Assembly (NCBI GenBank): GCA_038729465.1
Contig: JAVYRZ010000006.1
Span: 1,697 to 65,696, forward strand
Source of the DNA: Thermoplasmata archaeon
Lineage (GTDB): Archaea; Thermoplasmatota; Thermoplasmata; Thermoplasmatales; ARK-15
Length of the DNA: 64,000 bases
Direction of reading: 5' to 3'
This document shows, in pieces, positions 1,137 through 58,769 of this stretch. Position numbers and translations under genes: made by a program. The first letter of the stretch is position 1. Every line of letters begins with the position of its first letter. The notes below the pieces were generated by a model. That model was not told the origin of the DNA, did no database searches, and saw nothing but the letters and a program-made list of their open reading frames with translations.

Positions 1137-1789
1137 CATTTAAGGAATTGGATATATTAAAATATCTGGCTTTGAAAGGAGCAGATAAACAATTTATTAC
1201 CATTACAACGAATGCCTGCGCAAAAGAAATGAATATAAGCCAGCAATCGTTTTCTAGAAAAATTCTGATATTAGACAAATATAAATATATCAGCAGGTCA
1301 ATGGGCGTAAAATCACAAAAAATTAAAATTACTGAAGAAGGCTTAACAGTGCTTAAAAAAGAGATGATTGATTATATGAAAATATTTGAAATGAATAACA
1401 ATATAGAACTTGAGGGAAAAGTAGTTTCTGGGCTTGGAGAAGGGTACTACTATATGAAAGAGAGGAATTATAGGGACCAGATCATTAAAAAACTTAATAT
1501 AAAACCTTTTTTGGGCACTCTTAACGTTAAGGTAAACAGTGAGTATTTACCTAAACTAGAATTGATTAGAGCTGCCCAAGGCATAGTAATAGAAGGATTT
1601 AAAACTGAAGATAGATCATTCGGAGACGTAATAGCTTATCATGCTAAAATTGAAGAGATTAACGCGGCATTAATTATACCAGACAGAACTCATTATACGG
1701 ATACAATCGAGATAATTTCCGCAATAAAATTAAGAGATTTTTTCAAACTGAAAGATGGGGATCAGATAAAAATAATAATAAATATATAA
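1133..1789 (+). CDS. rbkR: HTH domain fused to archaeal CTP-dependent riboflavin kinase (RbkR-type)
   Basis: N-terminal wHTH-like region. C-terminal GKVVSGLGEGYYYM...FLGTLNVKV matches the archaeal RibK (MJ0056-type) core. ATGA overlap with the PIN gene. Confidence 0.7.
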   Translation: MTFKELDILKYLALKGADKQFITITTNACAKEMNISQQSFSRKILILDKYKYISRSMGVKSQKIKITEEGLTVLKKEMIDYMKIFEMNNNIELEGKVVSGLGEGYYYMKERNYRDQIIKKLNIKPFLGTLNVKVNSEYLPKLELIRAAQGIVIEGFKTEDRSFGDVIAYHAKIEEINAALIIPDRTHYTDTIEIISAIKLRDFFKLKDGDQIKIIINI

Positions 1790-1794
1790 AGAAA

Positions 1795-2171
1795 AGTTAG
1801 TATTAGTAATCCTCCGATATTTAGATAGGAAATACGCGGACTGTTTTTGATAGATGCTTATATATAAGAAATAATTAAAACTTCCAAAGCAAAGCTTTAT
1901 CATCACAAAAAAGTATTGAAAAACATTTTGGTGATTGCAGGTTTGTTTGCAACTATTTTTATCAGAACATATCATTGTGAAAACTGTGAATAGGGTTAGA
2001 TAGAGATCTGAACACATCGCTAAACATGGCGAAGATAGAAACGTTAAAAGCAGGTTAGCGCAATCTGAATTTACGTTTGTGGAGATTGCAACATTCTGCT
2101 AGCATGAAATATATCCGTACACTCTTGGGCATAGGGGCAAGGAAACTCCGATACTTTAGCTGAGGAGTAGC
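1795..2171 (+). repeat. Repeat family F1, copy 1 (~377 bp, MITE-like or ncRNA-bearing element)
   Basis: Alignable end to end with 3674-4044. The left ~250 nt are about 90 percent identical by eye; the right ~130 nt are much more diverged. Ends carry TAATCCTC / GAGGAGTA inverted termini and a direct ~20-nt motif CTCCGATAyTTTAG..AGGA at 1812-1830 and 2146-2166. The element abuts the pyrI stop codon. Confidence 0.8.
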
Positions 2172-2639
2172 TCAAATTATGTTTTTTAAGATATCTTGTT
2201 GATCCATTTCTCGTTCACAATATTTGCATTTTATCTTAATTGGTTTTGAGGATATTGTTATAAATTCAGGTTCTATTGGTTCATTTTGATTAGTAACACA
2301 GCTTGGATTGGAGCATTTTACAATACCTTTTAGTGATTTCGGTACCTGAACTCTGTATTTCTCTGTTACTTCATAGTTTTTTATAATGTTTACTGTAGCA
2401 GAAGTAGTAATCAAAGATATTTTATTTATTTCTTTTTCGCCAATGTATCTATCTTCTATCTTTACAATATCCTTAAATTTTTTGGACTTACTGCTTACAT
2501 GCATTAAAATACTAATTGTAGATCCAATATCGTCTTCAATTCCCAATATCTTCAATACTTTCAGCGCGAAACCGCTATCTATATGATCTAGCACTATTCC
2601 GTTTTTTATTTTTTGAACTTTTAATGTTTGTTCATCCAT
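2172..2639 (-). CDS. pyrI: Aspartate carbamoyltransferase regulatory chain
   Basis: N-terminal KIKNGIVLDHI block and a C-terminal Zn domain (CSNPSCVTN...CKYCE). Immediately downstream of pyrB. Confidence 0.9.
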   Translation of the reverse strand: MDEQTLKVQKIKNGIVLDHIDSGFALKVLKILGIEDDIGSTISILMHVSSKSKKFKDIVKIEDRYIGEKEINKISLITTSATVNIIKNYEVTEKYRVQVPKSLKGIVKCSNPSCVTNQNEPIEPEFITISSKPIKIKCKYCEREMDQQDILKNII

Positions 2640-2641
2640 AT

Positions 2642-3559
2642 TTATCTAGCTCCCAGTACCATGCTCAAAAGTGCCATTCTTATAGGCACACCATTAGCCG
2701 CTTGCGTGAAATACTTTGCGTTAGGTAAAGCGTCAACGTCTGTACTTATCTCATTTATGCGAGGCAGTGGATGCATCACTATTACATTTTCCTTTGCTTT
2801 TTCTAACAATTTTCTATCTATTATATAAGATCCTGCAACTTTCTGGTACTCGTTTATGTCCCCAAAACGTTCTTTTTGAATTCTAGTAACATAAATTACA
2901 TCTAGATCTTTTATTACTTCTTCAAGATTGTCAGTAACTATATGGTTAACTCTGTCTGATATCTCTCTAATTATGTAATCCGGCATCTGTAAAAGTTTTG
3001 GCGATATAAAATAAAGGTTGGCACCAAACTCTGCCAATGCATGTGTTAATGAATGGACGGTTCTTCCATATTTCAGATCTCCAACAAATCCAATGTTAAT
3101 GTTGTTTAACCTTCCCTTCTCTTTCTTTATGGTATATAAATCCAGAAGAGTCTGCGTTGGGTGCTGGCCAGCACCATCCCCTGCATTAATGACAGGGTGA
3201 TCTGCAAAATGAGCGGCTAGTTTAGCAGCACCTTCATAAGAATGTCTTATTACTATCACATCTGAATACGCGTCGACCATTCGAATAGTATCTGCAAGTG
3301 TTTCTCCCTTTGCAAAAGAAGTGCTTTTGGGATCTGAGAAAGTTATTACATTTCCTCCAAGCTTGAACATACTAGCTTCAAACGACATTTTAGTTCTGGT
3401 GCTAGGCTCAAAAAAAAGTGTAGCAAGAACCTTGCCCTTCAATATATCTAAACTGTTTCCATTAACATAGGGAACCATTGTGTCAGCAACTCTGAAAATC
3501 TCTTCAATATCATCCTTTTTCAGGTCTTTTATAGAGACTATATCTTTTCCTTTAATCAT
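2642..3559 (-). CDS. pyrB: Aspartate carbamoyltransferase catalytic chain
   Basis: FFEPSTRTKMSFE, HPTQ and HPLPR motifs are all present. Confidence 0.95.
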   Translation of the reverse strand: MIKGKDIVSIKDLKKDDIEEIFRVADTMVPYVNGNSLDILKGKVLATLFFEPSTRTKMSFEASMFKLGGNVITFSDPKSTSFAKGETLADTIRMVDAYSDVIVIRHSYEGAAKLAAHFADHPVINAGDGAGQHPTQTLLDLYTIKKEKGRLNNINIGFVGDLKYGRTVHSLTHALAEFGANLYFISPKLLQMPDYIIREISDRVNHIVTDNLEEVIKDLDVIYVTRIQKERFGDINEYQKVAGSYIIDRKLLEKAKENVIVMHPLPRINEISTDVDALPNAKYFTQAANGVPIRMALLSMVLGAR

Positions 3560-3673
3560 TATTAACAGTTAATAAAATACTTTGATTTAATATTTTGCAA
3601 TTTTTATGAATAAAATTCTGGTTGAAAAAATAAAAGCGCGTAAAACACAGAAATAAGTTAGCAAGTAAAATAA

Positions 3674-4044
3674 AGTTAGCAGTAATCCTCCAGTATTTAG
3701 ATAGGGGATATATGGACTGTTTTCAATAGATGATTATATATAAGAAATGATTAAAACTGTCAAAGCAAAGCTTTATCATCACAAAAAAGTATTAGAAAAA
3801 CCTCTTTTTGTTGCAGATTTGTTTGTAACTATTTTTATTAGAAAATATCATTGTGAAAACTGTGAATAGAATTAGACAGAGATCTGAACACATCGCTAAA
3901 CATGGCGAAGATAGAAATGATAAAAGTAGGAGTGGTGCAATTTGAATTACGCCTGTGACGGTTATCCTGCTAATATGAAATATCTCTGTAAAAGCAGATA
4001 TTCGTGATCCTAAAAAGCTCCGATGCTTTAGTTGAGGATTAGCT
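3674..4044 (+). repeat. Repeat family F1, copy 2 (~371 bp)
   Basis: Direct-orientation homologue of 1795-2171. Together the two copies bracket pyrBI. It lies 53 nt from the rpe stop codon. No ORF of 60 aa or more lies within it. Confidence 0.8.
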
Positions 4045-4097
4045 ATTACAAAAATAATTGTTGCACATATTTATTTAGGCTATAGTAACTTTCTTGT

Positions 4098-4742
4098 TTA
4101 AAATATAGAATAAAACTTTTTTATGTTATCTGAAATATTGCCATTAAATATCGCGCTTGCAGCCACTAGATAATCCGCACCAGCCTCAATTATAGCCTTT
4201 GCATTACTTTGATTTACACCACCATCTACCTCGATCTTAATGTTCAAATTATTTTTTAGAATAATTTCTTTAATATTTTTTATTTTATTGAGTGATTCGA
4301 TTATAAATTTTTGACCTGAAAAACCAGGATGAACCGACATAACTAATATGAAATCTATATACTTAAGAAAACCAGAAACCTTGAAAACATCTGTTTCAGG
4401 ATTGATGGCCAAACCAATCATAATATTAGATTTTTTAGCTTGTTTCAATATTTTATCATCTTTAATTGTCTCAACATGAACAGTGATAATATCCGATCCT
4501 GCACTTATAAATTGATCCATATACTTTTCTGGGTGTTCAATCATTAAGTGGCTGTCTAATTTAGCCGATGTTACTCTTCTTATACTTTCTACAACAATAG
4601 GCCCAAAAGATATATTCGGAACAAAATGACCGTCCATTATGTCTAAGTGAAACATACTAATTCCATTAGCTTCGCATTCTTTTATATCTTTTTCTAAATT
4701 AGCAAAGTTAGCAGAAAGTATAGATGGCACTAATATAACCAT
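4098..4742 (-). CDS. rpe: Ribulose-phosphate 3-epimerase
   Basis: HLDIMDGHFVPN, MSVHPGFSGQKF and EVDGGV motifs. Confidence 0.9.
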   Translation of the reverse strand: MVILVPSILSANFANLEKDIKECEANGISMFHLDIMDGHFVPNISFGPIVVESIRRVTSAKLDSHLMIEHPEKYMDQFISAGSDIITVHVETIKDDKILKQAKKSNIMIGLAINPETDVFKVSGFLKYIDFILVMSVHPGFSGQKFIIESLNKIKNIKEIILKNNLNIKIEVDGGVNQSNAKAIIEAGADYLVAASAIFNGNISDNIKKFYSIF

Positions 4743-36402: not shown

Positions 36403-36819
36403 ATGTATTTTCTAATCAGCATAAGACACAGTTACTTGAAATCTCAGGTATTGACAAAAATTTTAAATTTTTGTGTATCAAAAGAAATAGAGTTACTGTA
36501 TGAACAGTATAACGGAAAGATATTGCTTAATACTGTTGATATAAAATATTTTTTAGATACACTGGAAGAGTTGTCTACAGTTCAGGAAGTATATAAGATA
36601 AATGGTTTCACAGATCTGAAAGCTATTTTCATGGACAAAAAATACAATACTTTCGCAGTACGCACAAATACAGATAACTCTGCGAAGTACAACCAGCAAG
36701 TAGGAACCATAATTTCAGAATCGTTTCCAGATCTAAAAGTGGATTTAAAGAATCCGGATATTACTGTGCATTTAGAATATTTAGGAAAGGCATGGTACTA
36801 TTTTGTAAAAGTTATCTAA
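36403..36819 (+). CDS. THUMP-like domain protein
   Basis: The FAVRTN...DLKNPDITVHLEY pattern resembles THUMP/ThiI N-terminal domains. Weak call. Confidence 0.4.
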   Translation: MYFLISIRHSYLKSQVLTKILNFCVSKEIELLYEQYNGKILLNTVDIKYFLDTLEELSTVQEVYKINGFTDLKAIFMDKKYNTFAVRTNTDNSAKYNQQVGTIISESFPDLKVDLKNPDITVHLEYLGKAWYYFVKVI

Positions 36820-36920
36820 AATATTATCATATCATTGCTTTAAAAATTAATTCTATATTTTATGATAAAATCAAGAAAGTTTTAAATAGTAAGGTTGATA
36901 TAAAATTAGATGGTGAAAAG

Positions 36921-38306
36921 ATGAGAATTTTGTTTGTATCTCCTCCTACAAGTTCTGTAGTAAAAGAGATATTGAATACTACGACACCTCCTTTAGGCCT
37001 TGCGTATTTAGCTTCAGTTGCACGTCAGAAAGGAAATGAAGTAAGGATTATAGACTCTTTAGTGATGAATATGAGTTTTGATAATCTAGAAAAAGAGATC
37101 AAAAACTATAATCCTGATATCGTTGCGATTACCTCTACAACTTCGATGATATATGATGCTTATAAAGTTTCAGAGATATCTAAGAACATTAATAATAAAA
37201 TTAAAGTTGTGCTAGGTGGTCCGCATGTCACCTTTACACCTGATATCACATTTAGTGAAAATCCAAATGTTGATTTTATAGTTCGTGGCGAGGGAGAAAC
37301 TGTATTTTCAAATCTATTAGATTTTCTGGATGGAAATTATAATATAAGAGATATCAGAGGTTTAAGCTATAAGAAAGATGATAAAGTTATAAACAATCCT
37401 CCAGAATTATTGATAAAAGATATAGATACAATACCATTTCCTGCATTAGATCTATTGCCTATGGATAGATATATGATGGACAATAGACCTTTTGGAACAA
37501 TAATGACTTCTAGAGGCTGTCCTTACAACTGCTCATTTTGCTCATCGTCATTGCAATTTGGAAAACAGTGGAGAGGTCATTCAAGTGAAAGGGTAATAGA
37601 AGAATTAAAAATATTATCGGAAAAATATCGGAAAAAAGAGATAGAATTTCTGGATGATACGTTCACGTTGAACATGAAAAGAGCATTGGAACTCACTGAA
37701 AAGATGAGAAAAGAGAAGCTGGACATTACCTGGTCGGCGTCTTCAAGGGTTAATTTATTTACTGATGAATTAGCAAGATCCATGAAAAATGCCGGGCTAC
37801 ACACAATATATTTTGGAATAGAATCTGGTAGCCAAAAAACGTTGGATTTTATAGGGAAAGGAATAAATTTAGATCTGGCTATCCAGGCAGTGAAAAAAGC
37901 TAACAATGCAGGGCTGCATTCTCTTGGTTCATTTATAATAGGATTCCCTGATGAAACAATTGAAGATGTAAAAAATACAATTAATTTTTCCAAAAAATTA
38001 AAAGTGACGGTAGCTCAGTTTACCATTGCCACTCCCTATCCAGGTACCAAACTTTGGGATTATGTGACGGAAAAGAAGTTGTTGCTGTCAAGAGACTGGA
38101 GAATGTTCACGACTTTAAGCCCGATAATCAAGCTGAAAAATTTTACATCTAAGCAAATACAAACATGGCTTACGAAAGCATATATCAACTTTTATTTCAG
38201 GCCCGTGTACTTAATAAAAGATATTGTAAAAGAAAACGGATTTGCATTTCGTAGAATATTACATTTCCCAATACATTCAATCAAGTCACTCACTTCTAAA
38301 AGTTGA
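36921..38306 (+). CDS. B12-binding-domain radical SAM protein (461 aa), paralogue of 57384-58769
   Basis: N-terminal MRILFVSPP...PPLGLAYLAS...DIVAITS is a cobalamin-binding Rossmann-like domain. SRGCPYNCSFCSS is the CxxxCxxC radical SAM cluster motif. GGTGA lies 5 nt upstream of the ATG at 36921; the track start 36792 overlaps the previous gene. Confidence 0.85.
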   Translation: MRILFVSPPTSSVVKEILNTTTPPLGLAYLASVARQKGNEVRIIDSLVMNMSFDNLEKEIKNYNPDIVAITSTTSMIYDAYKVSEISKNINNKIKVVLGGPHVTFTPDITFSENPNVDFIVRGEGETVFSNLLDFLDGNYNIRDIRGLSYKKDDKVINNPPELLIKDIDTIPFPALDLLPMDRYMMDNRPFGTIMTSRGCPYNCSFCSSSLQFGKQWRGHSSERVIEELKILSEKYRKKEIEFLDDTFTLNMKRALELTEKMRKEKLDITWSASSRVNLFTDELARSMKNAGLHTIYFGIESGSQKTLDFIGKGINLDLAIQAVKKANNAGLHSLGSFIIGFPDETIEDVKNTINFSKKLKVTVAQFTIATPYPGTKLWDYVTEKKLLLSRDWRMFTTLSPIIKLKNFTSKQIQTWLTKAYINFYFRPVYLIKDIVKENGFAFRRILHFPIHSIKSLTSKS

Positions 38307-38596
38307 TTTTCATTGTTTTTACGAAATAAAAAGAAAAGTTTTATTTATAATGTGTTTGGAAAAGCTGTAAAAGTTCGATTCTTTAGCGAGAAGGTACAAG
38401 GGCTTCTAACAATAGAAAAGTTCATATAAATTAAGGTAATAAGAGATTTGCTCAGAGAACTAGTCAGCAAGCAGGAAAGAGAAATTCTGAAATCACACGT
38501 ATGGAGAGTGCAATGCCAGTATTATCTACTACTCTTTGAGCCAGAAACACGATCCTTTGGTGTGAAGATATCTACTATTTAGTTAAGGGTAGAGAA

Positions 38597-38669
38597 GCCG
38601 TGGTAGCTCAGTAGGGAGAGCGCAAGACTGAAGATCTTGAGGCCGCTGGTTCAATCCCGGCCCACGGCA
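38597..38669 (+). tRNA. tRNA-Phe (anticodon GAA), no encoded CCA
   Basis: Folded by hand. Acceptor GCCGTGG/CCACGGC. D-arm GCTC-AGTAGGGA-GAGC. Anticodon stem CAAGA/TCTTG with loop CTGAAGA. T-arm GCTGG-TTCAATC-CCGGC. Confidence 0.9.
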
Positions 38670-38932
38670 CTTTTATATAAATTCAAAGGCATAACTATTT
38701 TTAATATCCATATACTAAAATCTATTATATTTTGATAGATAGGCATTGTATATCTTTTAAAGAGAAGTTATGGATTTTGGAGAAACCGCTTACTCTGAAG
38801 ATCTTTTATATTTAAAAACAGCCCAAAGATTTAGAGAAGATTGCATCAATTCAGAGTTTAACGAAGCCTGGCAATGTCATAAAACAAACTATATAAAATT
38901 TAAATAATAAGAGGTATTAAAGAAAATTGAGA

Positions 38933-41527: not shown

Positions 41528-41786
41528 AAGATTGATTAATACAATTATCTATTTGAACTTATAGACATTGCCAAAGTCTATATTGATCTATAAATTTAAT
41601 TTAGAACCTTATTTGCAAATCCTTCCGATCAGTTTTCCGGCAATAACAGCAACATAAAAAATATCCCTTTTTTTAGATACAGATCAACATAGGTAGTTAT
41701 AAATGCTGGATATAAAACACATATAATAAAACTATAGAAATAAAACATGATAAATGCCATAAGATTAGTAGAGAAAGAACGCTATG

Positions 41787-41968
41787 CTGGAAATAAACAG
41801 TTAGATCTCATATATATAATTATAGATAAAAAATCTCAGAAAATGGCCGATTTCTGAGATATTAAAATATAGAAAATACATACTTTAAAAGAATATTTAT
41901 TACAAATGCTTTGTAATATGGAATGAATCTAATGTTAAACAATAATTGATTTAAAGGTTTATTTCTGC
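41787..41968 (-). repeat. Repeat family F2, copy A (core ~182 bp; weaker similarity extends to ~41737)
   Basis: Its reverse complement aligns with 52109-52288 at roughly four-fifths identity by eye. Termini are GCAGAAATAAACC ... GTTTATTTCC (inverted). Internal palindromes are ATTACAAAGCATTTGTAAT and CTCAGAAA-N8-TTTCTGAG. Confidence 0.75.
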
Positions 41969-42016
41969 TATCAAAAGCACAATAAAGCTTATATATTAAA
42001 ATTGAATTGTAAAAAT

Positions 42017-42571
42017 ATGGCAATTTTAGATGAACAAAAAACAAATATTTGGAATATAGACCCTGCGCACACAAACATTGAGTTTTCTGTAAAACATATG
42101 ATGATCTCTTCAGTAAGGGGGAGATTTGAATCATTTCAAGGCAAGCTTTTTGGAAACGTAGACGAAATAGAGAATGGAAATATTGAGATTTTTATAGATT
42201 CAGCCTCAATCTCAACGAAAGAAAAAGATAGAGATAACCATCTTAGATCTCCAGATTTTTTCTATACCGAAAAATATCCAAAAATCAAGTTTATTAGCAG
42301 TAAAATAAAAAAGATTGATAATGATACCTATGATGTTACTGGTGATCTGACAATCAGAGAAATTACAAAACCAGTAACTGTAAGAGCAAAAATAGAAGGA
42401 AAAATTACGGATCCATATGGAAATGAAAGAATCGGAGTTAGTGTAAGTGGCTCTATAAATCGTACAGAATGGAACCTTAAATGGAATTCTATCGTTGAGG
42501 CTGGCGGATTAATGGTTGGAGAGATCGTAAAAATCAATGTAGAGCTTGAAGCTATAAAAACTAAAAAATAA
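42017..42571 (+). CDS. YceI-like (polyisoprenoid-binding) domain protein
   Basis: WNIDPAHTNIEFSVKHMMISSVRGRF and DRDNHLRSPDFF are YceI hallmarks. Start set at the ATG at 42017. Confidence 0.8.
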   Translation: MAILDEQKTNIWNIDPAHTNIEFSVKHMMISSVRGRFESFQGKLFGNVDEIENGNIEIFIDSASISTKEKDRDNHLRSPDFFYTEKYPKIKFISSKIKKIDNDTYDVTGDLTIREITKPVTVRAKIEGKITDPYGNERIGVSVSGSINRTEWNLKWNSIVEAGGLMVGEIVKINVELEAIKTKK

Positions 42572-51063: not shown

Positions 51064-51723
51064 TTATATTGCTTTTTTACATAAATCATTTAAAGGGCAA
51101 TGTTCACAGTCTGGTACTTTTTTACAATATAGCTTGCCAAGTAAAACAAGTAATGCATGATACTCTTTAAATTGGGAAACATCGTCTCTCAATGATCCGT
51201 AAAACAATTTTTGAGCTTTTGTATAATCTTTCTTGTTTTCTTTGATGTCATAACCTAGCCTTTTTAGGATTCTGAGAGTGTATAGGTCTATTACAAATAC
51301 CGGTTTGTCTGCAGCATATAATATAATAGAGTCGGCCGTTTCTCTGCCTATCCCGTTAATTTTAATTAACTTTTCATAAAGATCTTCCTGTGATAAAAAA
51401 AGCTCAAGGTTTCCATTAAAATCGCGTATTATAATTTCTACAAAATTTTTAATTCTTCTTGCTTTTTGTCTATAAAAACCAGATGCTCTTATCTGTTCAG
51501 CCAAGTATTTATCACTGATTTTGAAAAGATTTTCAAGAGTCATCAAGTTTTTAGTTTTCAGATTTTTTATTACCTTCTCTACATTTTTCCACGAAGTATT
51601 CTGAGTTAGTATAGCACCTAATATCATCTCTAATTTAGAATCAGCTGGCCACCAATGTTGCTCTCCAAAATAGCTATAAAGTTTTTTATATATTATACTT
51701 AAATCTAGGCTTTCAGAGATCAT
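51064..51723 (-). CDS. Endonuclease III-related HhH-GPD DNA glycosylase with a C-terminal Fe-S cluster loop
   Basis: GIGRETADSIILYA helix-hairpin-helix and C-terminal CKKVPDCEHCPLNDLC. Confidence 0.7.
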   Translation of the reverse strand: MISESLDLSIIYKKLYSYFGEQHWWPADSKLEMILGAILTQNTSWKNVEKVIKNLKTKNLMTLENLFKISDKYLAEQIRASGFYRQKARRIKNFVEIIIRDFNGNLELFLSQEDLYEKLIKINGIGRETADSIILYAADKPVFVIDLYTLRILKRLGYDIKENKKDYTKAQKLFYGSLRDDVSQFKEYHALLVLLGKLYCKKVPDCEHCPLNDLCKKAI

Positions 51724-52040
51724 TGTATTTTCAAGGATATTTTGTTAGCGATTTCATCTAAATTTGAGTTTTGTGGCATTATCGATATAAGAAAATGGCG
51801 ATCTTTGTATGGTAACAACATCAAGAATCCTGATTCGGTATCTATAATTATCTTTTTTAAATTTTTATATTTTAGCTCATTGTTTGCGGTTATCGCCGCA
51901 CCATAAATAGTAGCGCACATAATAGAGAAAGTATCTTTATTTAACTGCTCTGAGAGTACGGAATCTTCCATTGTACCATCCCTTCTAATAATAGCAACAC
52001 CCGTCAAGTGCAATTCTTTCTTTAGATTCTCTAAATCCAT
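51720..52040 (-). CDS. Roadblock/LC7 domain protein
   Basis: About 106 aa with the GVAIIRRDG...SGFLMLL pattern typical of Roadblock/LC7 (MglB-like). ATGA overlap with the downstream gene. Confidence 0.6.
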   Translation of the reverse strand: MDLENLKKELHLTGVAIIRRDGTMEDSVLSEQLNKDTFSIMCATIYGAAITANNELKYKNLKKIIIDTESGFLMLLPYKDRHFLISIMPQNSNLDEIANKISLKIQ

Positions 52041-54842: not shown

Positions 54843-55037
54843 TTAGACCCATCCAACACGGTCTATTTCTCTTTCTTTTTTTGTTTTTTTCTTGTATTCT
54901 TTATAATGTTCTTTGCATAAGTGTGCTCTTTTTTCTCCTTCTTTCAAATTGAATATTTTCATTGCTTTATCTTTTCCTACTGTTTTGTAAGATTCTTCAT
55001 TGCATCCGGAAACACTACATGTTTTTGTTTCTGCCAT
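54843..55037 (-). CDS. Small basic Zn-finger protein (64 aa)
   Basis: CSVSGC...HLCKEH putative metal ligands and a K/R-rich C-terminus. It is preceded by the F1-related leader. Confidence 0.6.
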   Translation of the reverse strand: MAETKTCSVSGCNEESYKTVGKDKAMKIFNLKEGEKRAHLCKEHYKEYKKKTKKEREIDRVGWV

Positions 55038-55721: not shown

Positions 55722-55883
55722 ATGACTAATAAAGAAGTATCTGGAACTTATCACAACTGTCCGGAAGACTTTTTACAGGCAGTGGAGCTAGAAAATATGA
55801 TTCTAGATATCTTTATAAACGGCCCAGAAAGATCTATGTTGGGCAGACAATCAATGATTATTGAACAGAACAATGTTATATAA
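55722..55883 (+). CDS. Small ORF (53 aa, absent from the ORF track) directly upstream of the radical SAM/SPASM gene; candidate precursor peptide or gene remnant
   Basis: Hand translation gives MTNKEVSGTYHNCPEDFLQAVELENMILDIFINGPERSMLGRQSMIIEQNNVI. It stops 13 nt before the ATG at 55897. Coding status is unproven. Confidence 0.3.
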   Translation: MTNKEVSGTYHNCPEDFLQAVELENMILDIFINGPERSMLGRQSMIIEQNNVI

Positions 55884-55896
55884 GAAGGTGACAAAA

Positions 55897-57387
55897 ATGG
55901 TTGAAAAAGTTGATGAAAATGTGGTCTTGCAGGAAGGCGGTAAAATAGATACAACGAAGCTTGTATCACAGTTTCAGAAGATTGTTGACAACAGATTTGC
56001 AAAATTCATTATGAAAAGAATGACCACGCCAAAAAAATTCGAGCATACTCTAGCTGTATTTGCAGGTGTTGAAAAACCTAATTCTGTAGGAGAAAAAATG
56101 GAAGTTAAAACCATAGAGGCAGCCTTGGGAAGAGCGTTAAAGACATTTGGCATAAATGATATGGCAGCGGTGAAAAATGCATTGAATGAACCTTTTGTCA
56201 GGAAGGGTGTTGCGTTAACGCTCAGGTCAGTAGCAAAGTACGGGCTGACGAGGCCACAGGTTTTCGAAGCACCTTTGCTCATAGTCTGGAACATTACTAA
56301 GCAATGTAATTTAAAATGTTTGCACTGCTATGCAAACGCTGGTCCTTACAAACATAAGGATGAATTGTCTTTAGAGGAAAAATTGAATGTGATAGACCAA
56401 CTTGATGAAGCGGGAGTGACGATGATATCATTCTCTGGAGGAGAACCCTTGATCAGCCCAGATTTTTGGAAAGTAGCAGAGTATGCGTCAAAAAAAGGTA
56501 TGTACACAACGATTGCTACAAATGGAACACTGCTGACAAAAGAGAATGTTGAAAGATTGAAAAACATTGGAATAAGATATGTGGAAGTAAGCCTTGATGC
56601 CCCGGAACCAAAGACGCACGATATGTTCAGAGGTGTGGAAGGAGCTTGGCAGAGAACAGTAGACGGTATAAAGAATGTAGTTCAATCAGGGGCATTCGAT
56701 ACTGCTATTGCAACCACGGCCACAAAATACAATATTGGTGAAATTCCTCAGATGATAGACATTGCAATAGAGCTAGGCGTGAAAAAGTTTATAGTGTTTA
56801 ATTTTGTTCCCACAGGCAGAGGAAAGGATATAATTGCCGAGGATTTATCCCCCAAAGAGCGGTCTGATCTGTTGAATTATCTCTATGACAGATGGCAAGA
56901 AAAGAAAATTGACATATTTTCAACGAGTCCAACATATTCGCAAGTAGGTATTGAAAGGGTTCTTGCAGGAACTGGAAAAACGTATTCACCCACTCACTTT
57001 GCATCTGCAGATTATGGTGAAACAGGAGTTGGATTAGCAGAATTTATAGGTGGTTGCGGTGCAGGAAGGCTCTATGCGTCCATAGAAGACAATGGAGATA
57101 TAGGTCCATGCGTATTTCTTCCGATAAAGGTTGGAAACATAAGGGAAAAGAGTTTTAAAGAGATATGGGAAAATTCTAAAGATCTTCAGCAATTAAGAAA
57201 TAGGGATCTTTACGAAGAAAACTGCAAATCATGTGTGTTTAGAAATCCTTGCGGTGGATGTAGAGCAAGGGCATACGGCTACTTTGGCAATTATCTTGCA
57301 CCGGATCCAGGCTGCACTTACAATCAAAAAATGTATGATGGGATAATGAAAGAAGTGTACGTTACTGCTGTTGGAGGAAAGAAATGA
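55897..57387 (+). CDS. Radical SAM enzyme with a C-terminal SPASM-type auxiliary-cluster domain and a ~130-aa N-terminal extension
   Basis: WNITKQCNLKCLHCY is the CxxxCxxC motif, followed by FSGGEPL. The C-terminus reads GGCGAG...GPCVF...CKSCVFRNPCGGCRARAY (SPASM-like). GGTGA lies 7 nt upstream of the ATG at 55897; the track uses a TTG at 55861. Confidence 0.85.
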   Translation: MVEKVDENVVLQEGGKIDTTKLVSQFQKIVDNRFAKFIMKRMTTPKKFEHTLAVFAGVEKPNSVGEKMEVKTIEAALGRALKTFGINDMAAVKNALNEPFVRKGVALTLRSVAKYGLTRPQVFEAPLLIVWNITKQCNLKCLHCYANAGPYKHKDELSLEEKLNVIDQLDEAGVTMISFSGGEPLISPDFWKVAEYASKKGMYTTIATNGTLLTKENVERLKNIGIRYVEVSLDAPEPKTHDMFRGVEGAWQRTVDGIKNVVQSGAFDTAIATTATKYNIGEIPQMIDIAIELGVKKFIVFNFVPTGRGKDIIAEDLSPKERSDLLNYLYDRWQEKKIDIFSTSPTYSQVGIERVLAGTGKTYSPTHFASADYGETGVGLAEFIGGCGAGRLYASIEDNGDIGPCVFLPIKVGNIREKSFKEIWENSKDLQQLRNRDLYEENCKSCVFRNPCGGCRARAYGYFGNYLAPDPGCTYNQKMYDGIMKEVYVTAVGGKK

Positions 57388-58769
57388 AAATACTTTTTGT
57401 TTCACCTCCAACGGATTCTGCAATAAAGAGTGTTATTGGCACTACAGGTCCGCCACTTGGGTTAGCATACCTTGCATCTGTGGCAAGATCAAAGAGTCAT
57501 GATGCAAAAATTGTAGATTCGCTTGTGGAAAACCTTACTTTTGAAGAGCTCAGAAAAATTATGGAACAATATTCCCCAGATGTGATAGCCATTACATCTA
57601 CAACTTCAATGATTCCGGATGCTTATGAAGTGGCAAAGATTGCAAAGGATATTTTCCATGGTACTGTAACAGTGATAGGCGGTCCGCATGTCACTTTTGT
57701 ACCTGAACAGACATTGCAGGAAAGCCCTAACATTGATTATGTGGTTAAGGGTGAAGGGGAAATAGCTTTTTCAGGCATACTTGATATACTTGAAAAAAAG
57801 AAGGATCCTAAAGAGATAAGAGGTATTGCCTACAGGAAGGGAAATGGCATAATGAATAATCCACCGGAGACTCTTATAAGTGATGTAGACTCAATACCAG
57901 AACCTTCATGGGATTTACTGCCAATGGATAAATACGAGATAGACAATACCCAATTTGGAACAATAATGACTTCTAGAGGGTGCCCATATAACTGTATATT
58001 TTGCTCATCGTCATTGCAATTTGGAAAACAGTGGAGAGGGCATTCAGTTGAACGTGTAATTGACGAACTGAAAACTTTAAGATACAAATACAATAAAAAG
58101 GATATTGAGTTTCTTGACGATACGTTCACACTTAATATGAAGAGAGCTATTGAATTAACAGATAGGATTTACAAAGAGGGCATTGATATAAGGTGGTCTG
58201 CATCAGCGAGAGTGAACCTTTTCAATGAGGATATTGCAAAAAACATGAAAAAAGCGGGAGCGCATACAGTATACTTTGGAATTGAATCAGGATCTCAGAA
58301 AATTCTGGATTTCATTGGCAAAGGCATTACACTAGACCTTGCAAAATCGTCTGTAAGAAAGGCAAACAATGCTGAATTATATACGTTAGGATCTTTCATC
58401 ATAGGTTTTCCGGATGATACCGTAAAAGACATAAAAACGACAATTAAGTTCTCGAAGGGCATTGGCGTAACCGTTGCGCAATTCACTATTGCCACACCAT
58501 ATCCAGGCACAAGGCTCTGGGATTATGTCATGGAGAATAAACTTCTACTAAGTATGAACTGGAGAAAATTTACAACATTATCGCCTGTGATGAAACTTCG
58601 GAATTTCACACCGGATCAGATACTCAAATGGCTATCTTGGGCATATCTATCATTTTATGTTCGTCCTCTTTATCTGATGAGGGATATAGCAAAAACGCAT
58701 GGTTTTGTTTTTAAAAGGCTAATACCCTATGCAAAGAAGGCAATGAACCTTGATATTATGGGTGAGTAA
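57384..58769 (+). CDS. B12-binding-domain radical SAM protein (461 aa), paralogue of 36921-38306
   Basis: MKILFVSPP...GPPLGLAYLAS...DVIAITS plus SRGCPYNCIFCSS. About two-thirds aa identity to the paralogue by eye and identical length. ATGA overlap with the SPASM gene. Confidence 0.85.
   Translation: MKILFVSPPTDSAIKSVIGTTGPPLGLAYLASVARSKSHDAKIVDSLVENLTFEELRKIMEQYSPDVIAITSTTSMIPDAYEVAKIAKDIFHGTVTVIGGPHVTFVPEQTLQESPNIDYVVKGEGEIAFSGILDILEKKKDPKEIRGIAYRKGNGIMNNPPETLISDVDSIPEPSWDLLPMDKYEIDNTQFGTIMTSRGCPYNCIFCSSSLQFGKQWRGHSVERVIDELKTLRYKYNKKDIEFLDDTFTLNMKRAIELTDRIYKEGIDIRWSASARVNLFNEDIAKNMKKAGAHTVYFGIESGSQKILDFIGKGITLDLAKSSVRKANNAELYTLGSFIIGFPDDTVKDIKTTIKFSKGIGVTVAQFTIATPYPGTRLWDYVMENKLLLSMNWRKFTTLSPVMKLRNFTPDQILKWLSWAYLSFYVRPLYLMRDIAKTHGFVFKRLIPYAKKAMNLDIMGE

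Follow-up and report, generated by a model that had tools for sequence, protein, structure and literature searches.

Probable palindrome-associated, protein-less relics of a tnpB-only IS200/IS605 transposon around the pyrBI operon of a Thermoplasmata archaeon

The subject of this report is a repeated non-coding element, termed F1, in a stretch of 64,000 nucleotides from a Thermoplasmata archaeon (assembly GCA_038729465.1, contig JAVYRZ010000006.1, positions 1,697 to 65,696 of the forward strand), hereafter called the window, which is AT-rich with 33% G+C. Two copies of F1 bracket the pyrI-pyrB operon, and two further copies lie elsewhere in the same window. We are highly confident that these copies are protein-less, internally deleted derivatives of a tnpB-only transposon of the insertion sequence (IS) family IS200/IS605 (IS1341-type), of the class known as palindrome-associated transposable elements (PATEs). 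The F1 family is a known kind of archaeal mobile-element relic, neither a new RNA nor a regulatory system. The copies measure 223-386 nt, too short for a transposase, and keep stubs of TnpB interrupted by stops or frameshifts; no open reading frame (ORF) bearing a Pfam domain lies within any copy in the window.

A sequence-only reading of this DNA had described F1 as a pair of direct repeats at 1795-2171 and 3674-4044. The repeat itself is real and co-oriented: repeat detection matched 1805-2054 of the left copy (c1) to 3681-3930 of the right copy (c2) at 87% without gaps, and blastn aligned 1787-2172 with 3666-4044 at 80% identity over 391 columns (E 3e-95). Both copies are on the + strand, on either side of pyrI-pyrB, and are ~385 bp long each, with ends that fall somewhat outside those first proposed. 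c1 spans 1790-2175 (386 nt), as defined by repeat detection, by end homology to the relatives L043 and L033 and by an empty site in the relative L059, and c2 spans ~3662-4047 (~386 nt) between the pyrB promoter region and the 3′ end of rpe. Nor are the two copies a lone pair. The right ~120 nt recur on the - strand near 55.1 kb, where blastn first revealed a third copy, c3 (55459-55076, - strand, 384 nt), which shares its first ~45 nt and last ~140 nt with c1 and c2, so that both ends are well kept around a divergent, AT-rich interior. A short, divergent fourth member, c4 (38353-38575, + strand, 223 nt), was recovered through a covariance-model match and a left-end alignment to L033 and L016. 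In total, four family members lie within 64 kb, and the 3′ motif CTCCGATNCTTTAGNTGAGG occurs three times in the window against 0.04 expected.

The identity of F1 is given by its relatives. A scan for CTCCGATNCTTTAGNTGAGG returned 13 archaeal loci from a genome collection and ~20 from a metagenome collection, often several per genome; all the named archaeal loci belong to Thermoplasmata or Thermoplasmatales, next to a few bacterial chance matches, and in other Thermoplasmata genomes the motif loci adjoin unrelated genes. At locus L015 a 392-aa ORF with the Pfam domains HTH_OrfB_IS605, OrfB_IS605 and Cas12f1-like_TNB ends 10 nt before the motif, and the NCBIfam model "RNA-guided endonuclease TnpB family protein" scores 324 bits for L015 and 296 bits for L033, the cut-off being 100 bits. 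In L033 and L043, the loci closest to the window type, the TnpB ORF runs through the whole motif and ends in ...ESGSSDALAEG-stop, indicating that the right part of F1, which is conserved, consists of the 3′ end of tnpB and the right end (RE) of the transposon. L015, L033 and L043 all hold an intact TnpB between left and right ends like those of the window copies, and in the autonomous relative L034 a Y1 transposase (Pfam Y1_Tnp, E 8e-41; NF033573, 141 bits) is followed by tnpB and then by the same right-end motif. The TnpB family comprises >6,000 proteins at E<=1e-30, with source names such as [quoted passage not shown] and "RNA-guided endonuclease InsQ/TnpB". Further deletion derivatives of 230-400 nt were found in other Thermoplasmata genomes (L002, L006, L016, L019, L037).

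Remnants of tnpB can be read within the copies themselves. By tblastn with L033 and L043 as queries, c1 1915-1959 reads IEKHFGDCRFVCNYF, 80% identical to TnpB residues 19-33, and c1 1983-2120 matches residues 350-392; the corresponding TnpB regions are matched by 3779-3835 and 3866-3946 in c2, and 55206-55084 in c3 matches residues 369-409 at 66% identity with four in-frame stops. Three segments, all on the + strand, make up c1. The first is a remnant of the left end (LE; 1790-1853), a degraded nested palindrome AGAAAAGT...TAATCCTCCGATATTTAGATAGGA...ACTGTTTTT that aligns with the LE of L033, L043 and L016. The second (1858-1966) consists of the tnpB-upstream region and a remnant of TnpB codons ~1-36 whose start codon is lost. 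The third (1967-2175), recognized by tblastn and by a covariance-model match at 2036-2173, is a remnant of codons ~341-410 that coincides with the RE and with a putative scaffold of omega-RNA, the guide RNA of TnpB; it carries in-frame stops, a frameshift and a 5-nt deletion in one helix strand. The TATA-like box pointed out in the sequence-only reading, TTATATATAA at 1858-1867, is homologous to the stretch that directly precedes the start codon ATG of tnpB, a codon that has become ATT in c1. In blastn, both c1 and c2 align to L043 189-303 and 1257-1437 (positions 98-200 of c1 in element coordinates matching 189-303), and the breakpoints 303 and 1257 are common to both, leaving an internal deletion of ~950 nt in which codons ~37-340 are gone. 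Since this deletion junction is shared, c1 and c2 descend from one progenitor that already had the deletion and later reached a second site; they did not arise by independent decay. A 95-aa ORF at 1730-2017 on the - strand, which overlaps the ribK 3′ end and most of the left part of c1 opposite to the tnpB remnants, is most likely spurious.

Both ends of the element carry palindromes. The left end is homologous across c1 to c4, L016, L033, L037 and L043. In intact relatives it forms a nested palindrome with a 10-bp outer stem (TTGAGGGAAG/CTTCCCTCAA) and an inner hairpin with a TTTA or TTCG loop, and its folding as single-stranded DNA (ssDNA) is strong (z -3.4 and -4.4); in the window copies this folding is degraded (z -0.6 for c1, +0.7 for c2, -0.9 for c3 and -1.1 for c4). 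The inner LE palindrome resembles that of the RE (CTCC-GAT-GC-TTTA-GC-TGA-GGAG), and the LE motif CTCCGATATTTAGATAGGA matches the RE motif CTCCGATACTTTAGCTGAGGA on the same strand, with no terminal inverted repeats (TIRs). The ~20-nt direct motif that had been noticed at both ends of each copy corresponds to these subterminal palindromes. We propose that the copies were mobilised in trans as ssDNA by a Y1 TnpA recognising the end palindromes, and that they would insert 3′ of a short TTAG-like motif. The motif found 5′ of the insertion is GTTAG(G/A) in L033, L043 and c3, GTTAAG in L016 and GATAG in L037, and the relatives of class B have TTTAC as their target motif.

Two side observations concern the same ends. 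The 20-nt right-end motif and the downstream sequence GTAGTTCAC also follow TnpBs that are only ~30% identical to the L033 type (L030/L035/L041/L050 and L049/L051); the palindrome at the ends is kept well past the point where the protein has diverged, which is what recognition by a shared TnpA would predict. At L012 12-45, L040 1143-1190 (- strand) and L052 120-165, TTTAC/GAAC stands directly before the right-end palindrome. This is the target motif joined to the first 4 nt of the class-B left end, giving a "terminal-only" mini-element of ~36 nt that is reminiscent of the 52-bp core-deleted PATEs of Haloquadratum.

c1 occupies the entire gap from the stop codon (1787-1789) of ribK, a CTP-dependent riboflavin kinase gene identified by Pfam (1133-1789, + strand), to the last sense codon of pyrI. 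The host genes pyrI (2172-2639, Pfam PyrI/PyrI_C) and pyrB (2642-3559, Pfam OTCace_N/OTCace) are both on the - strand, as is rpe (4098-4742) to the right of c2. The closest syntenic relative outside the species, L059 (GCA_027056155.1), has the pyrB-pyrI / ribK-PIN-eIF2beta order of the window and is distant, with PyrI 68% identical, which has to be borne in mind when it is used as an empty site. There, ribK and pyrI have convergent overlapping stops (TCTAGA) and 0 intergenic nt, against the 386 nt of c1 in the window. Because, in addition, the C-terminal length of RibK is equal in both and the window flank after c1, ATTATGTTTT, agrees with what directly follows the ribK stop in L059, c1 appears to have been inserted immediately 3′ of the ribK stop. 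c1 thus landed exactly between two overlapping convergent stops, which would have separated pyrI from the stop codon it had before. The stop that pyrI now uses, TGA (TCA at 2172-2174), lies in the RE terminus of c1, GCTCA(A), so that a transposon terminus now gives the stop of an essential-pathway gene. The family consensus GCTCAC would give ...I-M-stop, and a C-to-A change would restore ...I-I-stop; PyrI is 155 aa long in the window and 153-155 aa in relatives. The sequence-only reading had c1 ending exactly at the pyrI stop, a codon that c1 in fact overlaps, and placed the end of c2 53 nt from the rpe stop (4098-4100), where we count 50 nt. No empty site for c1, c2 or c3 was found within the species: 7 assemblies carry c1, all four that span the site of c2 carry c2, and c3 is present in one other recovered strain, GCA_038876015.1, with 1 mismatch in 3 kb. 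In L023 (GCA_038878395.1) a 100-N scaffold gap at 3534-3633, flanked by duplicated 128 nt, makes pyrB look split; we discarded this as an assembly artefact and not a pseudogene.

Judging from its pattern of substitutions, the right ~140 nt of F1 appears to be a truly structured RNA, placed and arranged like the scaffold of a TnpB omega-RNA. A covariance model (R1) was built from the RNAalifold consensus of the right ~145 nt of 11 non-window relatives (alignment A4). Across 35 distinct family members, canonical pairs make up 89.8% of pair cells, against 77% in column shuffles and 33-43% in a control where partners were slid by 1-3 columns; compensatory double changes occur at 16 of the 25 pairs, and none of 500 shuffles reaches the observed values. 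The alignment used for covariation (A7) was fitted to the model, which favours structure, yet the margin is still large. The first hairpin alone changes at all five pairs (GGGCU/AGCCC, CCUUC/GAAGG, GGGAG/CUCCC). The part of L015, L033 and L043 covered by the model overlaps both the final ~45 TnpB codons and the RE. The guide of an omega-RNA is the flanking DNA, and a plus-strand transcript running into the flank would be inherent to this design. A box C/D or K-turn reading of CCGAUAU...CUGA, made by eye, was dropped when the motif turned out to be the palindrome at the transposon end and to lie within the TnpB ORF.

Intact relatives score 115-168 bits against the model (120.6 bits for the full-length L015 and 114.6 bits for L049). 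In the window, c3 scores 111.7 bits (55220-55078, E 3e-30), c1 70.7 bits with broken pairs (2036-2173), c2 60.9 bits (3912-4045) and c4 15.6 bits (38456-38570, E 0.007). A 5-nt deletion in c1 removes one strand of a long-range helix, and deletions of 5 nt and 3 nt in c2 hit both strands of it. With their LE palindromes degraded and their omega-RNA helices broken, c1 and c2 read as decaying relics, and the scaffold would seem to outlast the protein gene to a varying degree (112, 71 and 61 bits in c3, c1 and c2).

The divergence between c1 and c2 is strongly uneven, as the sequence-only reading had observed. Positions 1790-2054 are 86% identical to their counterpart and positions 2055-2175 only 67%, with 10 gap columns (Fisher p 3e-5); the most diverged block, 2101-2145, is 49% identical. 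Two causes had been offered, homogenisation of the left part or a structure-constrained RNA in the right part. The second holds as far as descent from a covarying omega-RNA is concerned, but constraint fails to explain the pattern because the right part is the more diverged one and, in both copies, deletions interrupt its helices. Homogenisation finds support in sister strains, whose c2 has conversion-like tracts in clusters. Six further same-species assemblies differ from the window by 0-0.5% in the aligned part of the first 6 kb, with most of the differences clustered inside c2 and c1 nearly invariant. The mosaic segment of c2 spans 3794-3877 (+ strand): L022 and L025 have the c1 allele at 13 of 13 c1/c2-discriminating sites in 3794-3844, L023 and L024 have it at 3870, 3871 and 3877, and L024 also at 3794-3795 and 3984. 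All multi-site tracts fall in the left part. It is likely that gene conversion among copies, which these tracts support, keeps the left ~260 nt similar, and that the right part decays without constraint, with indels that also block conversion (heteroduplex extension) there. Such strain mosaics in one copy suggest concerted evolution between relic copies. AT mutation bias alone, as a cause of faster decay in the G+C-richer right part, was rejected, its effect being estimated by inference at <=~1.3-fold against the ~2.4-fold difference in mismatch rate observed. Across the window, GC skew follows nothing but gene orientation and is uninformative on replication direction versus element orientation.

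Several observations weigh against the reading of F1 as PATE-type relics or against parts of it. The RE palindrome is conserved in sequence, yet its DNA hairpin energy is not significant (z ~0). The target motif is loosely defined, with TATAA at c1 and TAATG at c4 and few young copies, and the LE start that sets the left boundary of c2 is ambiguous by ~5 nt. The conversion-like tracts come from short-read metagenome-assembled genomes, in which chimeric paths through repeats sharing identical runs of <=40 nt could mimic conversion. In addition, the L022 tract and likewise the L025 tract carry 6-8 differences found in neither c1 nor c2; because these changes are alien to both copies, the L022 donor, if real, is another, unseen copy, probably elsewhere in the genome. 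Finally, neither TnpA nor intact TnpB was found in the 64-kb window, and among the closest NCBI TnpB matches, judged by accession proximity, none is assignable to the species: accessions of other close matches lie >16,000 from the species' PyrI accessions, and two candidate clusters are other assemblies. Present mobility and use of the c3 omega-RNA are therefore unsupported.

Among the alternatives, the one that fares best, though we still think it improbable, is that at least c3 has been domesticated as an orphan guide-RNA gene, kept by selection and used in trans by TnpB or a nuclease-dead relative, in which role it may keep the element in place or regulate the adjacent gene. The c3 scaffold is near-intact though its ORF is dead, and could supply guide RNA to a TnpB encoded elsewhere; its score comes close to those of L015 and L049 despite four ORF stops, and the copy is fixed in the second strain named above. 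PATE-encoded omega-RNAs acting in trans have also been discussed (10.1101/2023.03.14.532601). Against this stand the lack of a TnpB found in the window or assigned to the species and the lack of any second window site matching the four putative 16-nt guides with <=2 mismatches, and a young insertion would be equally well preserved without selection. A wider version, in which c3 and possibly copies outside the window are selected orphan guide-RNA genes and, separately, c1 and c2 still recombine, as the conversion-like tracts hint, and mediate reversible loss or amplification of pyrBI in the population, likewise has little probability in our judgement. The excision or amplification of pyrBI that had been suggested from the direct repeats found nothing in its support, and all 7 same-species assemblies keep the arrangement.

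A host-encoded family of structured non-coding RNA genes that has a promoter of its own, was duplicated on both sides of pyrBI and has nothing to do with transposons would fit the G+C content of the right domain (0.43-0.50 against 0.33 in the window) and its covarying helices. Rfam, too, is without a family for this domain, giving no match at gathering threshold in the window and, under permissive settings, nothing relevant either in 1700-4200 (E<=10) or in L033 and L034 (E<=1). However, intact TnpB ORFs in L033, L043 and L015 have the right-domain sequence as their 3′ end, the left part contains the 5′ end of tnpB as well as the left end of the transposon, the helices of c1 and c2 are broken, and the copies sit at unrelated sites, one of which is empty in the syntenic relative. 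Given that F1 is homologous in sequence to the TnpB ORF and the two ends of the transposon, an independent origin of such a family can be taken as refuted, and we consider the explanation very improbable indeed.

F1 had also been proposed to be a miniature inverted-repeat transposable element (MITE) or a site-specific insertion. This stands insofar as F1 is a transposase-less mobile derivative with full-length relatives (L033, L043, L015), and falls insofar as a classical MITE is meant, with TIRs and a target-site duplication and mobilised by a DDE transposase, for which we see next to no chance. F1 is indeed short, non-coding and multi-copy, and 8 nt near its ends (TAATCCTC / GAGGAGTA), reported as inverted termini, are complementary. 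These octamers are not TIRs but internal palindrome arms, namely the 5′ arm of the LE palindrome and the 3′ arm of the similar RE palindrome, which seem inverted because two direct copies of a palindrome look inverted, and the element continues beyond them for 17 nt on the left and 7 nt on the right. No target-site duplication is present at c1, c2, c3 or c4 where the flanks were read directly (..ATATAA/ATTATG.. at c1, ..GTTAG/ATATTA.. at c3, ..ATAATG/TATTTA.. at c4). IS200/IS605 elements are not expected to make one. The full-length relatives encode TnpB, one of them together with a Y1 TnpA, and no DDE enzyme. Equally implausible is that an intergenic regulatory stretch, for instance a promoter or terminator module belonging to the pyr operon, underwent local segmental duplication without mobility. 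c1 and c2 are indeed co-oriented, only 1.9 kb apart and on the flanks of one operon, but c3 and c4 are found at a distance of 35-53 kb in unrelated surroundings, homologues stand beside unrelated genes in many other Thermoplasmata genomes, and the syntenic relative is without the element.

The reading of F1 as PATE-type relics places it in a class already known from the literature for both archaea and bacteria. PATEs were defined in Haloquadratum walsbyi from IS605/IS1341-type transposons (Dyall-Smith et al., 2011, PMC3119063). Like F1, they have no TIRs, similar near-terminal palindromes at both ends and no target duplication, and are core-deleted tnpB elements of non-coding size, multi-copy and heterogeneous; some of them, such as HqIRS71, keep disrupted C-terminal coding sequence as F1 does (PMC3119063). 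F1 differs in its thermoacidophilic Thermoplasmata host, its 33% G+C setting and the lack of sequence relationship to the halobacterial families, as well as in the nested double hairpin of its LE with a 10-bp outer stem and in the retention of both 5′ and 3′ tnpB stubs by c1 and c2. PATEs "often encode omega-RNAs" that need TnpB in trans (Meers et al., 2023, preprint, 10.1101/2023.03.14.532601). In tnpB-only IS200/IS605 elements such as ISDra2 and ISGst of G. stearothermophilus, as in F1, the scaffold of the omega-RNA (or right-end element RNA, reRNA) overlaps the tnpB 3′ end and the RE (10.1101/2023.03.14.532601). Also shared are the flanking DNA as the would-be guide and a relative, L034, with Y1 TnpA. 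Unlike these systems, F1 is known here from sequence, the scaffold is broken in c1 and c2, and in its class-A relatives the TnpB ORF reads through the entire RE (...ESGSSDALAEG-stop). The sotRNAs of Halobacterium are likewise non-coding RNAs within the 3′ end of archaeal IS1341-type tnpB (Gomes-Filho et al., 2015, PMC4615843); they were detected as transcripts within intact genes, whereas F1 has sequence and covariation evidence and its gene is gone.

What looked like a mysterious pair of non-coding DNA segments can thus be annotated as a family of mobile elements from uncultured Thermoplasmata of hot springs. Its ends are defined, an omega-RNA model is available for it, and 64 kb contain four of its copies. 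The biology of IS200/IS605 is unchanged by it, and its main use is to keep such loci from being misannotated as novel RNAs or regulators.

Some further observations concern the surroundings of c3 and c4. c4 ends 21 nt upstream of tRNA-Phe (38597-38670), and therefore the promoter region of this tRNA must fall in or at the edge of the c4 RE. A 64-aa ORF without Pfam match (54843-55037, - strand; MAETKTCSVSGCNEES...CKEHYKEYKKK...) starts 38 nt downstream of the c3 RE and is called as a gene in sister assemblies; c3 separates it from its former upstream sequence. The Logan contig L063 starts with an Illumina adapter (CCCTACACGACGCTCTTCCGATCT, positions 1-23) and breaks inside c3, and these repeats fragment or confuse short-read assemblies.

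Other repeats and paralogues occur in the window. An unrelated pair of ~225-nt repeats, 41770-41993 (+) and 52306-52084 (-), has 80% identity between its members, which are inverted relative to each other. A gene begins shortly after each of them (YceI-like, 42002-42571; Roadblock/LC7, 51720-52040), and each has a hairpin TCTCAGAAA...TTTCTGAGA; the pair may be another mobile-element family or a shared promoter or 5′ untranslated region module. Two paralogues of B12-binding radical SAM genes, 36792-38306 and 57384-58769 (both +), share 67% nucleotide identity over ~1.17 kb, the latter coming after a radical SAM/SPASM gene at 55861-57387.

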